DNA from: a virus
Lineage: Duplodnaviria; Heunggongvirae; Uroviricota; Caudoviricetes
Length of the DNA: 11,915 nt
Reading direction: 5' to 3' (one strand)
IMG/VR virus record: IMGVR_UViG_2671180012_000001
A program made the position numbers and the translations under genes. Shown in pieces: positions 7,085 to 11,915 of this stretch. The notes beneath the pieces are model-generated. The model saw nothing but the letters and a program-made list of their open reading frames with translations. It made no database searches and had not been told where the DNA came from. The number at the start of each line of letters is the position of its first letter. Within the stretch, counting starts at the first letter, position 1.

Positions 7085-8125
7085 ATGGTTGATTTATATT
7101 CGCCTACTCAGCTTGTACAGGTGGTTAATGCTGTAGATGTACAAAAACAACTAAATGCGTTGTTTACCAGTTTGTTTTTTACTCGCTCGGTAATGTTTGA
7201 ATCGCGCGATATTATTCTTGATACAATCGACGATCCAAATATCCCAATTGCAGCGTTTTGTTCTCCTATGGTGGGTAGTAAAGTTTCACGTGACGAAGGG
7301 TACGAATCAAAAACAATTCGTCCAGGCTATATGAAGCCGAAAAGCAGCATTGATCCAAATAAGTTAGCTGTGCGCCCTGCTGGTGTATCACCTGAGCAAT
7401 ACAATGCTTTTGGGGCACGTAATATTAAAGTTAAACAGGCGATTGTAAATCAGGCTAAAGCTATTCGTGCACGTATTGAATGGCTTGCTGTTCAGGCAAT
7501 CACAACGGGGAAAAATATCATTGAGGGCGATGGTATTGAACGTTATGAGCTGGACTGGAATATAAAACCACAAAATATCATCACTCAGTCTGGCGGTACT
7601 GAGTGGTCAGGTAAGGATAAAGAAACTTTTGATCCAAATGATGATATTGAGAGCTACGCAGAATTTAGTGAGGGCGTCACTAATATCATCATTATGGGTG
7701 GTAATGTATGGAAGAAATACCGTTCATTCAGAGCGATAAAAGAGGCTTTGGATACCCGTCGTGGTTCTAATTCCGAACTGGAAACGGCCCTTAAAGACCT
7801 TGGTGATTCGGTGAGTTTTAAAGGGTATATGGGCGATGTTGCGATTGTTGTTTACAGCGGGCGTTATACCGACGAGGACGGAACAGAAAAACATTTCCTT
7901 GATCCTGATTTGATGGTGCTTGGCAATACGGCTCTTCAGGGGATTGTCGCCTATGGCGGTATTCAGGATCCGGAGCTAATCCGAATGGGGCTGACTAAAG
8001 CCGAACTTGCACCGAAAAACTATATTGTGCCTGGTGATCCGGCTATTGAATATGTGCAGACACATTCAGCACCACAGCCAATACCGGCCCGCATCAATCG
8101 TTTTGTTACCGTTCGCATTGGCTAA
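7085..8125 (+). CDS. Major capsid protein, lambda gpE family
   Basis: Translation aligns along its length with lambda E from memory, e.g. ITQSGGTEWSGKDKETFDPNDDIESYA, DTRRGSNSELETALKDLG, YMGDVAIVVYSG, MVLGNT, HSAPQP. Homology begins at MVDLYSPTQL (ATG 7085, GAGG at 7075-7078); the track ORF start at 6872 is an upstream in-frame extension with no homology. Confidence 0.85.
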   Translation: MVDLYSPTQLVQVVNAVDVQKQLNALFTSLFFTRSVMFESRDIILDTIDDPNIPIAAFCSPMVGSKVSRDEGYESKTIRPGYMKPKSSIDPNKLAVRPAGVSPEQYNAFGARNIKVKQAIVNQAKAIRARIEWLAVQAITTGKNIIEGDGIERYELDWNIKPQNIITQSGGTEWSGKDKETFDPNDDIESYAEFSEGVTNIIIMGGNVWKKYRSFRAIKEALDTRRGSNSELETALKDLGDSVSFKGYMGDVAIVVYSGRYTDEDGTEKHFLDPDLMVLGNTALQGIVAYGGIQDPELIRMGLTKAELAPKNYIVPGDPAIEYVQTHSAPQPIPARINRFVTVRIG

Positions 8126-8134
8126 GGGGGAGCA

Positions 8135-8476
8135 ATGGCTACTCATTACACTGAACTCATGGCTGGCACTGAAGCACTGGTGACTACGCTGGGGATATTT
8201 TCAGCTAATAAAGGGGTAATTCCTGCATTTACGCCACTGATGCAGGAAGATGCAACAGGTGCACTGGTGGTATGGGATGGTTCGAGCGTAGGTAAAGCGG
8301 TTTATGTTTCCGCTGTACAAATCGACACAGCGAAAAAAACACAGGCACAGGTTTATAAGACAGGTGTTTTAAATGTTGATGCTCTGAACTGGCCTGAGTC
8401 TGTAAAAGAACTGTCGGCAAAGGTTGCCGCGTTTGTTGGCTCAGGTATTTCTGTTCAGCCGCTGGCTCGTGTGTAA
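8135..8476 (+). CDS. Head decoration protein, lambda gpD family
   Basis: 113-aa ORF with AAGGGGGA RBS. Aligns with lambda D from memory: [20 protein letters not shown] vs [37 protein letters not shown] vs [27 protein letters not shown] vs TAFAGTAISIV. Confidence 0.8.
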   Translation: [113 protein letters not shown]

Positions 8477-8487
8477 AGGGGGATACA

Positions 8488-8871
8488 ATGCAGAATCATT
8501 ACAATGACCTTAAGCCAATTGCCGAAATGATGTATCCGGATCCAGCAGTAGAGGAATTAAAGGCTATTGCTGACAAAATGCGTTTAAGTGAACGCCTTGT
8601 TGATATGAATCAGGTGATGGAACTTACTACCCTTAGCCGTCGCACATTGCTAAACCTTGAGGCTAGTGGAGAGTTCCCGGAGCGTGTGCAGGTTACGGAA
8701 GGGCGTAAGGCCTGGTATTTAAGTGAAGTGATCGACTGGATAAACAATATTCCTCGATCTTCTGAATATTGCCGCGTACCTGTCCCAAAAAAGCCAGATG
8801 CGGCGCTATGCCTCAAGATTGAGCGTGTACGTCGCAATGCACGGGATGGTCGCTATAAGTTGATTGGTTGA
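8488..8871 (+). CDS. HTH DNA-binding protein (AlpA/MerR-like fold) with N-terminal extension; candidate regulatory or packaging-specificity factor
   Basis: 127-aa ORF with AGGGGGA RBS. The segment MELTTLSRRTLLNLEASGEFPERVQVTEGRKAWYLSEVIDWI fits an AlpA-type HTH. It lies directly upstream of the cos site. Confidence 0.6.
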   Translation: MQNHYNDLKPIAEMMYPDPAVEELKAIADKMRLSERLVDMNQVMELTTLSRRTLLNLEASGEFPERVQVTEGRKAWYLSEVIDWINNIPRSSEYCRVPVPKKPDAALCLKIERVRRNARDGRYKLIG

Positions 8872-8880
8872 TGAAATTAG

Positions 8881-8965
8881 GGCCCGTTCTGGCTGGCGGG
8901 TCCTTTCCGGCGATCCGGTAGGCTACGGGGCGGCGACCTCGCGGGTTTTCGCTATTTATGAGCCT
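8881..8965 (+). other. Lambda-type cohesive-end site; cosN 12-nt overhang sequence GGGCGGCGACCT at 8928-8939
   Basis: GGCTACG-GGGCGGCGACCT-CGCGGGTTTTCGCTATTTATGA matches the circularised lambda cos junction as recalled (right end ...GGTTACG, left end GGGCGGCGACCTCGCGGGTTTTCGCTATTTATGAAAA...). The upstream cosQ-side segment (CGGGTCCTTTCCGG.GATCCG) is also similar. Sequence downstream of 8962 (the cosB position) diverges from lambda. Confidence 0.8.
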
Positions 8966-9072
8966 TTTTCGGGTGCTGGTGGTGGTTTTGTTGTTCGCTC
9001 TATCTCTATGAATAAAAAGGAAAAGATAAAGCCAATACACCAACCTGAAACATTACTTAAGTGGGGATATTG

Positions 9073-9614
9073 ATGAAATCGCACCTGATGAACAAAAAAA
9101 ACATGGCGCAAAGCTGCCGTGTAAGTGCGACAGCGTTCGACAAGTGGGGAGTGACTCCCGTTGAACGTAAAGGCCGCGAGGCGTTTTATGATGTTGCCAG
9201 CGTAATAGACAATCGGGTTAGCAATGCAATTAACCAGATTACAGACGACAAAGGCGAGATTGATGATGATGAACTCCTACGAGTCAGGATCAGATTGCTG
9301 ACAGCACAGGCAGAGGCGCAGGAGCTTAAAAACGAGCGCGAACGCGGCGACGTTATTGATACAGCGTTTTGTATATACGTGCTTTCAAAATTGGCGAGTC
9401 AGATTTCTTCAATCATGGACAGCCTGCCGCTTGCCATGACAAGGAAGTTTCCCGACATGAAGCCGTCTATGCTGGATGGACTGAAAAAGAAGTTATCAGA
9501 GCCTGTAACGCATGCGCAAAACTTGACGAAAACATACCGCTGATGCTGTCCGATTATCTGATGGAAACTGCCGGAAACGTACCGGATAAGTTGCAGCCGA
9601 ATAAAGATAAGTAA
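9073..9614 (+). CDS. Terminase small subunit, lambda Nu1-like; full-length reading requires a -1 frame change at the A-run 9484-9490
   Basis: N-terminal frame (track ORF 9061..9543) aligns with lambda Nu1 from memory (LLTAQAEAQELKNERERGDVIDTAFCIYVLSKLASQISSIMDSLPLAMTRKFPD vs LTRAQADAQELKNARDSAEVVETAFCTFVLSRIAGEIASILDGLPLSVQRRFPE). The Nu1-like C-terminus (EKEVIRACNACAKLDENIPLMLSDYLMETAG vs KRDIIKAMNKAAALDELIPGLLSEYIEQSG) is in the -1 frame (track ORF 9369..9614). Start taken at ATG 9073 (GGGGA RBS); the true start could be 9088. Confidence 0.75.
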
Positions 9615-9625
9615 CGTAGTACGCT

Positions 9626-9907
9626 ATGACTGAATCCGAAATACTGCGATTAATCCGCCGTGCTTGTGGAATCAGCAAGCAGCATGACGAACAGGCCACG
9701 CAGCCGGACAGCGTGACCGCAGATAATTATGTGCGTGTAGTGGCTGAGGTGATGCGCCGTGACGGTATTGAGCTTAACGGCGTGGATATGCGCAACATAC
9801 GAACAAGAGTCCTTGAGTTGCTGGCATATCGTCGCCGTTCTCAACAACGGAGGGAGAGCGCGAAAAATACTTACCAGTGGAAGAAGCCGGAACGATTGCG
9901 GCGGTAA
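9626..9907 (+). CDS. Hypothetical basic protein (93 aa)
   Basis: ORF beginning 11 nt after the stop of the Nu1-like C-terminal frame; no clear Shine-Dalgarno; Arg-rich C-terminus (RRRSQQRRESAKNTYQWKKPERLRR). No recognisable homology. Confidence 0.35.
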   Translation: MTESEILRLIRRACGISKQHDEQATQPDSVTADNYVRVVAEVMRRDGIELNGVDMRNIRTRVLELLAYRRRSQQRRESAKNTYQWKKPERLRR

Positions 9908-9922
9908 CTTGCTGATATTCCC

Positions 9923-10132
9923 GATAACGCAAAATTGCGCTGGCTGACTTGTTGCATTGCAAAAAGTTAAGCAGGAAGGCACGGCCTGTAAGATGGGATG
10001 CAGTAAGTAGTTCAAGGCTACCTTGTGCTGGCACGCACAGTTAAGCCGTCGGTGCTGGATATCCCCCACTGGGGGAAAAGCTGGCTACATCCCTCACATC
10101 TGAGGACTGATAACGCGACATTGCGCTGGCTG
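9923..10132. repeat. Pair of 24-bp direct repeats (9923-9946 and 10109-10132) with adjacent TGCA-type palindromes
   Basis: GATAACGCAAAATTGCGCTGGCTG vs GATAACGCGACATTGCGCTGGCTG (22 of 24 identical), 186 bp apart. Nearby palindromes: TTGCATTGCAA (9952-9962), CCCCCACTGGGGG (10063-10075), GTGCAAAATTGCAC (10138-10151). Confidence 0.6.
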
Positions 10133-10158
10133 GCAAAGTGCAAAATTGCACGATGGCC

Positions 10159-10320
10159 TAACCCATTGATTATTTCGAAAACCTGCAATGCAGGAAATCG
10201 GGGAAGTAAGCCTAAGCTATTGATTGTTTCGAAAACCCCCATTGGGGGATGTCGGGAAAGTAAGACTAACCCATTGATTCTTCCACAATCCTCAATTTGA
10301 GGAGGCCGGAACGTCTACAT
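10159..10320. repeat. Three tandem 54-bp repeat units, each with a 13-bp hairpin palindrome of different sequence at the same offset
   Basis: Units start at 10159, 10213 and 10267 (TAACCCATTGATTATTTCGAAAACC / TAAGCTATTGATTGTTTCGAAAACC / TAACCCATTGATTCTTCC...). At offset 23 in each: CCTGCAaTGCAGG (10182-10194), CCCCCAtTGGGGG (10236-10248), CCTCAAtTTGAGG (10290-10302). Confidence 0.65.
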
Positions 10321-10722
10321 AGCTGCATCGCCGTAATGATGATTCAGCCCACCAGCCAAATCAGCACAGCAACGACAGAATAGCCCGACACAGAAAAACC
10401 ACGAATATGGGGTTTTTGTTATGACATGGTCATGATGACCACTCATACAAAACAGGTAAAGCCCACCAGCCTGATTAAAGGTTAACCGGAAAAAAGCCAG
10501 GTATCCAATCTCGATATGGGGATCCCTATATCGACATTAACGCCCACTAAAACTGTGCATATATGCATAGAAAAAGCATCCACCAGCTTTATGACGGATG
10601 CCGCTCATCTTATAAATAATCGTGTATTGCAGTGTGTATTGCGACTCCTTTAAACGATAGGTCTGAGCATTCGTAATGTACTGTTTTTAAATTTTATTTT
10701 TTCCTGTCTTTTCATAAAGGCG

Positions 10723-10946
10723 ATGTATGCCGCCACCATTGAGAGTGAGCTGGATACGCAGTCAGCGATGGATTTTATTCTGGGCGCGAACAGTCAGGAG
10801 CAGCGGGAAAGGCTGACCGGCTGGATTGGTGAAATTGCCGCGTATTACGCCGCAGCGCCGGTCCGGCTGGGAGGCGCAAAAGTACCGCACCTGATGCCGG
10901 GGGACTCACTGAACCTGCAGACGGCTCAGGACACGGATAACGGCTA
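10723..10946 (+). CDS. Hypothetical protein, 3' end truncated by the assembly gap
   Basis: ORF starting at ATG 10723 after an AT-rich, palindrome-containing upstream region and running into the N-run; the track translation beyond 10946 is an artefact of reading across Ns and the antisense tRNA. Confidence 0.3.
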
Positions 10947-10956
10947 NNNNNNNNNN
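10947..10956. other. Assembly gap (run of 10 N); true length is greater than 10 nt
   Basis: N10 in the sequence. The 22 nt needed to finish the adjacent tRNA are absent and the left flank does not match them. Confidence 0.95.
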
Positions 10957-11024: not shown

Positions 11025-11117
11025 GTTCAGATGGTTGCCATGATGCCAGGAAATTTGGCATTTTAACAGTCCCTGTCCGTGCAATTTTGTTCAAGTGACG
11101 AGTTTGCGAGCAAAACG

Positions 11118-11915
11118 ATGATTAAGTGGCCCTGGAAAGTACAAGAATCAGCACATCAAACTGCCCTTCCCTGGCAGGAAGCACTATCGATCCCCCTTTT
11201 AACGTGTCTGACGGAACAGGAACAAAGCAAATTAGTCACTCTTGCCGAACGTTTTTTACAGCAAAAGCGGCTTGTTCCTTTACAGGGCTTTGAACTGGAT
11301 TCATTAAGAAGCTGCCGGATAGCACTTCTATTTTGCCTACCCGTTCTGGAGTTAGGACTGGAATGGCTGGATGGTTTTCATGAAGTCTTAATTTATCCTG
11401 CGCCATTTGTGGTCGATGATGAATGGGAAGACGATATCGGTCTGGTGCATAACCAACGTATTGTTCAGTCAGGTCAGAGCTGGCAGCAAGGGCCTATCGT
11501 TTTGAACTGGTTGGATATACAAGATTCTTTTGATGCTTCTGGTTTTAACCTGATTATTCATGAAGTCGCTCATAAGCTGGACACCCGTAACGGCGATCGC
11601 GCCAGCGGAGTTCCCTTTATTCCGTTGCGTGAGGTTGCTGGCTGGGAACACGATCTTCATGCTGCAATGAACAACATTCAGGAAGAAATCGAATTGGTTG
11701 GCGAGAATGCGGCGAGCATTGATGCTTATGCAGCCAGCGATCCTGCTGAATGTTTTGCCGTACTTTCTGAATATTTCTTTAGCGCCCCAGAACTTTTTGC
11801 TCCTCGTTTCCCTTCATTGTGGCAACGTTTCTGCCAATTTTATCAACAAGATCCTTTGCAGAGACTGCATCACGCTAATGATACAGACTCGTTTTCGGCG
11901 ACGAATGTTCATTAA
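11118..11915 (+). CDS. mtfA: Mlc titration factor A (zinc-dependent peptidase family)
   Basis: 265-aa product [24 protein letters not shown]... with HEVAH zinc-binding motif, matching E. coli MtfA/YeeI as recalled. The track ORF start at 11079 is an upstream in-frame extension; the serU-mtfA adjacency matches the E. coli K-12 chromosome. Confidence 0.9.

Follow-up and report, generated by a model that had tools for sequence, protein, structure and literature searches.

A Nu1-type small terminase gene, probably frameshifted by the loss of one A, in a prophage-embedded PICI of Escherichia coli RU1

The window, by which we mean the whole stretch of 11,915 nt analysed here, contains an island of roughly 10.7 kb with unidirectional gene order (Table 1). 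The island encodes an integrase, an AlpA-like regulator, a BRO-N protein, a primase and SSB, and its late part comprises a gpE-like capsid gene, a gpD-like decoration gene, a second AlpA-type HTH gene, cos, terS and a 93-aa ORF. The second AlpA-type gene is flanked by the decoration gene and cos, and is additional to the alpA-like gene beside int. A 356-aa ORF with a GTG start (2093-3163, plus strand) is unannotated in the RefSeq relatives; it is probably spurious, because these relatives annotate other genes there, namely a minus-strand YlcI/YnfO-family gene and a small Icd-like gene. No Pfam family matches the 93-aa ORF.

Table 1. Features of the window, with the evidence on which each assignment is based
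Feature	Position	Strand	Basis
Early region: integrase (1-1242), AlpA-like regulator (1244-1501), BRO-N (1558-2136), small ORFs, primase (4068-5822)	1..5822	+	ORFs, JNE23-011 RefSeq annotation
Lambda gpE-type major capsid homologue	7085..8125	+	Pfam Phage_cap_E, 143 bits; JNE23-011 RefSeq annotation
Lambda gpD-type head decoration homologue	8135..8476	+	Pfam HDPD, 56 bits
AlpA-type HTH regulator/excisionase-like gene, just 5' of cos	8488..8871	+	Pfam Phage_AlpA; phrog_2790
cosQ/cosN-type segment, with the lambda cohesive-end sequence GGGCGGCGACCT at 8928-8939	8896..8961	+	blastn, 95.5% to JNE23-011 locus L004:3001-3066
Putative island-specific cosB between cosN and terS	8962..9072	+	helper cos alignment collapses after 8961; EcCICFT073 analogy (PMC6739421)
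terS (Nu1-like small terminase), frame 0: 139 native codons, 17 out-of-frame codons, TGA	9073..9543	+	translation, Pfam Phage_Nu1
A5 run, site of the 1-bp deletion (relatives A6: CTG AAA AAA GAA)	9484..9488	+	alignments with relatives
terS 3' part in the -1 frame: EVIRACNACAKLDENIPLMLSDYLMETAGNVPDKLQPNKDK and TAA; homologous to the TerL-binding Nu1 region	9489..9614	+	translation, homology
Conserved 93-aa ORF 3' of terS	9626..9907	+	phrog_1561, full length, E 1e-55; hypothetical in relatives
Helper portal gene fragment, right of the island	10723..10946	+	match to JNE23-011 up to 10946
10-N scaffold gap; join to mtfA (11079-11915) is an assembly artefact	10947..10956		sister assemblies join differently

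Judging by its gene content and position, the island is of a known kind, a Gram-negative PICI within the portal gene of a lambdoid prophage. In JNE23-011 (L004:5867-18393) and CFSAN018748 (L001:1-12458) the island splits the prophage portal gene, the lambda B homologue, into two pseudogene halves, and the split gene lies between nohD/terL and the protease and capsid genes. Helper-embedded PICIs target lambda genes A, B, C and E (Williams group, PMC10111431). Related islands with about 85-95% identical terS are situated at clpS/clpA in TUM18530 (L003:3834-6599) and at narP/ccm in Nissle (L022:7825-12577), and in GN06489 (L002:4600-5388) the neighbour of a related island is a truncated major capsid gene of a prophage. 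The island family therefore has several attachment sites, some on the chromosome and others in prophages.

The lambda cosN sequence (8928-8961) is located 112 nt upstream of the terS ATG. It amounts to a 34-nt exact match to what we take to be the lambda left-end sequence, with 0 such matches expected by chance. The cosQ/cosN segment as a whole (8896-8961) is almost the same as that of the helper prophage, whereas the putative cosB-equivalent that follows is diverged from the helper cosB, which fits an island-specific TerS/cosB pair.

Frame 0 of terS extends from the ATG at 9073 (alternative GTG at 9061) to the TGA at 9541-9543, as read from the sequence and its translation, and passes through the codons GGA CTG AAA AAG AAG TTA, so that the product around the junction reads ...SMLDGLKK-KLSEPVTHAQNLTKTYR. 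This product of 156 aa combines 139 native residues with 17 out-of-frame residues that are conserved nowhere, and the final 41 native residues are missing from it. The -1 frame (...TEKEVIRACNACAKLDENIPLMLSDYLMETAGNVPDKLQPNKDK, stop TAA at 9612-9614) meets frame 0 at CTG-AAAAA-G (9481-9489), and its tail from 9489 onward is identical to that of the intact relative WP_000835282.1. A slip back by one base on the AAG at 9487-9489 gives LKK-EVIRAC..., exactly the protein of the intact relatives; the peptide after the junction lysine is EVIR... if shifted and LSEPVTHAQNLTK if unshifted. The TerL-binding C-terminal segment is present in all relatives, absent from the frame-0 product and found in the -1 frame only. 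A previous reading of the locus from its letters alone (hereafter the sequence-only reading) had described terS as split by a -1 frameshift at 9483-9489, the in-frame product as ending at 9543 without a Nu1-like tail, and the tail as becoming contiguous after a slip-back of one base. The sequence and translations bear out this description, down to the identity of the repaired protein with that of intact relatives.

The assignment to the Nu1 family, likewise proposed before any homology search, is upheld by the match to Phage_Nu1 (PF07471; 77.9 bits for the truncated and 85.8 bits for the repaired product, cut-off 30) and by an end-to-end alignment of the repaired TerS with the lambda-type Nu1 of the helper prophage (36% identity, E 6e-36). 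The repaired TerS is also 47.6% identical to TerS (gp1) of phage N15, and its residues 1-176 match phrog_57 (E 5e-51). At the N-terminus the BLASTP and phrog alignments reach residues 1-6, and the Pfam match begins at residue 65. The full-length reading is supported by phage TerS proteins aligning across the shift point, and the tail EVIRACNACAKLDENIPLMLSDYLMETAGNVPDKLQPNKDK aligns with the helper Nu1 C-terminus LDELIPGLLSEYIEQSG. In a phmmer search of the repaired TerS against all PDB chains, presumably with the deposited RppC structure among them, matches were at chance level, none had E < 0.06, and no Rpp or terminase chain was recovered, including that of the Nu1 DNA-binding domain. The contact of the lambda Nu1 C-terminal region with the large terminase, which the sequence-only reading had invoked, agrees with the relevant passage of PMC6739421, where the C-terminal portion of lambda Nu1 is described as binding TerL with reference to Frackman 1985 and Wu 1988.

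The closest complete genome, that of JNE23-011, is 99.94% identical to positions 1-10946 of the window (10,946 nt); the differences are six substitutions and a single indel, an extra A at 9483/9484 that makes the run A6 rather than A5. With a 71-nt query across the run, the A5 form was found in 0 of 56 complete E. coli genomes, all of which match at 72 nt with 98.6% identity. All 56 genomes carry A6 and an intact ORF of 180 aa, as do all 11 metagenome contigs with this terS allele, which were retrieved with a flank pattern permitting either run length. Of 5,426 complete E. coli genomes searched with a 601-nt query, 765 have a homologue. When these 765 were sampled at even intervals, each of the 59 full-length matches exceeded the query by one base and bore the annotation terminase small subunit. 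An alignment of the site in seven homologues of about 84-100% identity shows CTG AAA AAA GAA among close relatives, CTT AAA AAG GAA for a single lineage and CTT AAA AGG GAA for the Nissle and O157 lineages; all seven, the diverged island variants included, are in frame with an ORF of 543 nt. Because relatives read AAA AGG G or AAA AAG G and are still in frame, the A-run is not conserved by the evidence of these alignments, and among the sequences compared the split arrangement is unique to RU1.

The window derives from contig JRRZ01000007.1 (GCA_001412975.1), to which it corresponds across the N gap and on into mtfA. The accessions carrying this sequence belong to E. coli RU1 and to the MA, LB and BHI lines derived from it by laboratory evolution, GCA_001412975.1 being RU1 LB5 and GCA_001413005.1 the ancestor (PMC9638481); RU1 was isolated from healthy human stool (Saxer et al. 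2014, PMC4263409). In sister RU1-series assemblies, the end of this contig is followed across the gap by infA/aat, dmsC, pqqL, uvrD or other genes. Since one contig end is joined to such unrelated genes, the multi-megabase scaffolds of the RU1 series look like arbitrary contig concatenations in which adjacency across N gaps is not real, and the join after 10946 is not to be trusted.

The exact 156-aa truncated TerS occurs on 34 contigs of a large protein collection, and among the ten matches listed it is found only on RU1-series NCBI draft assemblies, all ten loci being 100% identical to the window over a shared 4.8 kb. True RU1 might nevertheless carry A6, with a homopolymer undercall transmitted to all deposited RU1-series assemblies, as A6 is present in every other genome examined and Roche 454, the platform on which the ancestor was read, is known for homopolymer indel errors. 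The ancestor was assembled from its 454 reads with Newbler, whereas Illumina HiSeq was used for the evolved lines (PMC4263409), and A5 is present in at least 10 NCBI assemblies, those of the 454-sequenced ancestor and of at least nine separately assembled Illumina lines. The ancestor contig is gap-free where the line assemblies break (10884, 10944 and 10946); because the lines have break positions of their own within the unbroken contig of the ancestor, this indicates that they were assembled independently and de novo from Illumina data, not copied from the 454 reference. The two platforms thus agree on A5. A generally indel-prone assembly is ruled out by the presence of one indel in 10,946 nt and of none, relative to the 99.94%-identical complete genome, in the 27 other homopolymers of at least 6 nt (A8, G8, G7 and A7 included); nor is any indel against JNE23-011 seen when all other runs of at least 5 nt (80) are considered. 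Logan contigs from unrelated runs point the other way in one respect: they show A6 turned into A5 alongside other homopolymer deletions, and the site is thus error-prone in some reads. These seven contigs (L015-L021, with the truncated product and a 146-aa call) were set aside as independent confirmation of A5. All seven also show A8 reduced to A7 at 9094, in the second homopolymer of terS (9094-9101, codons 8-10, near the 5' end), and some have scattered further single-base homopolymer deletions. These contigs are discounted either way, because such accompanying deletions typify error-prone reads; read errors, too, can turn A6 into A5 at the terS site. Given the agreement of two platforms and the lack of any other homopolymer indel, the A5 deletion is most likely real, of single origin and private to RU1, and an artefact in the deposited assemblies appears unlikely.

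A real deletion could still be read as a signal, and the sequence-only reading had raised programmed frameshifting with two isoforms, a short TerL-blind TerS and the full-length protein, at G_AAA_AAG. A -1 shift on A_AAG would restore the wild-type TerS sequence exactly, and this tetramer, the sole part of the heptamer that can re-pair well once the ribosome has slipped back, is known from E. coli as a shift-prone sequence and a minimal -1 shift site (PMC5009743). The heptamer as a whole, however, is not a canonical X_XXY_YYZ, for P-site re-pairing would be to GAA; the likeness to dnaX noted from the letters holds for the shared AAA_AAG codon pair and fails for the heptamer, which is A_AAA_AAG in dnaX. 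In dnaX, an upstream SD-like element at roughly 10-nt spacing is accompanied by a hairpin downstream. Here the one SD-like stretch is an imperfect GGAUGGA (9474-9480) whose end lies 3 nt 5' of the run, unlike the dnaX arrangement, and no upstream GGAGG at about 10 nt was seen by inspection. The stem-loop suggested as a further stimulator near the site did not materialise either: the 71 nt downstream have an MFE of -8.1 kcal/mol and a z of +1.18, folding worse than shuffled sequence, and nothing stands out in the 161-nt context (z -0.73). The two-frame terS is, moreover, confined to one strain against the 56 genomes and 11 metagenome contigs with an uninterrupted A6 frame, and in distant homologues the run is replaced by AAA AGG or AAA AAG G with the frame kept. 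Programmed frameshifting is contradicted because homologous islands are uniformly uninterrupted and lack a conserved slippery motif, the observation that the sequence-only reading had itself named in advance as speaking against it, and we give it next to no credence. It is also very improbable that the truncation is adaptive, with a tail-less TerS selected as an Rpp-like or dominant-negative agent against helper packaging or as a shield for the embedded helper prophage. PICI Rpp proteins have 144-153 aa, a wHTH and a dimerisation domain and no TerL-binding tail (PMC6739421), and the truncated TerS of 156 aa has a superficially Rpp-like layout. Against such a role stand the origin of A5 in one event in one strain, without parallels elsewhere among the genomes and contigs compared, the lack of detectable similarity of TerS to solved chains, and an out-of-frame end without conservation. 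The odds are similarly long for A5 as a tolerated or useful leaky allele, in which most ribosomes would make a tail-less TerS that binds the island cosB or helper TerS without recruiting TerL, with an Rpp-like or dominant-negative effect; if this were true, rare slippage on A_AAG would yield a little wild-type TerS and so adjust the packaging of the satellite relative to that of the helper prophage around it.

The explanation we favour, with a probability of about 85%, is that terS is a Nu1-type gene of a helper-embedded PICI, frameshifted by an ordinary loss of one A that is private to RU1 and its descendants. Among the three readings put forward from the letters, a genuine mutation leaving a pseudogene thus provides the best fit, at the expense of programmed frameshifting and of a sequencing or assembly error. 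Slipped-strand deletion of one A in A6 would have converted CTG AAA AAA GAA into CTG AAA AAG AAG. By the domain mapping of lambda Nu1, the 156-aa product would be expected still to bind the island cosB and to oligomerise, but not to recruit the large terminase of the helper, of the gpA type. With the TerL-binding tail gone, the packaging specificity of the island itself would be lost or greatly reduced, and RU1 terS would represent a recent pseudogene. The A_AAG left behind is probably prone to -1 slippage, and a few ribosomes could remake the wild-type LKKEV protein (PMC5009743). Such slippage would, we infer, be accidental leakage rather than a signal shaped by evolution; nothing suggests selection.

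Under the one-A loss, the appropriate annotation for the PICI terS of RU1 and of the lines evolved from it is frameshifted pseudogene, and the RU1 copy of the island is expected to package poorly in comparison with A6 copies. The importance of the case beyond annotation is small. It does carry a caution: a frameshift at AAA-AAG in a phage-type gene resembles recoding, and close relatives reveal a private homopolymer deletion.

The site shares with dnaX-type -1 sites the AAA_AAG codon pair and the single-tRNA-Lys slipperiness of A_AAG, and differs from them in having G and not A as its first base, in lacking a conserved stimulator and in being missing from in-frame relatives. Leaky homopolymer indels, such as that in the G-run of herpesvirus thymidine kinase, are accompanied by low-level compensatory frameshifting and known as 'savior indels' (reviewed in PMC5009743). 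RU1 terS resembles these alleles in its one-base homopolymer indel at a point where spontaneous slippage could restore the native product, whereas it shows no sign of selective benefit or of measurable compensation. The Rpp proteins are set apart by the lack of any sequence relationship in the phmmer search of PDB chains, TerS being instead a full-length homologue of Nu1. With lambda gpNu1 and N15 gp1 it shares whole-length homology once the frameshift is repaired, a location directly 3' of a lambda-type cosN and the conserved C-terminal tail LDExIPxxLSxY; unlike them, it is a gene of a satellite island and not of a phage, adjoins a diverged cosB and has its tail out of frame. The order of int, alpA, BRO-N, primase, gpE-like gene, gpD-like gene and cos is that of EcCICFT073-type PICIs from Gram-negative hosts (Fillol-Salom et al. 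2018, PMC6092414). The RU1 island also conforms to the general description of such elements as about 10-20 kb long, with a unidirectional int-alpA-pri module, a cos site and, in some cases, a capsid homologue (PMC6092414, PMC10111431). In EcCICFT073 itself terS is absent and RppA (144 aa) retargets the helper TerS (PMC6739421), whereas the RU1 island has a true Nu1 homologue at that position; a terS homologue is present in some Gram-negative PICIs (PMC6092414). In its integration into a late gene of a prophage, the portal gene corresponding to lambda B, the RU1 island agrees with the helper-embedded PICIs, for which this gene is a reported target (PMC10111431).
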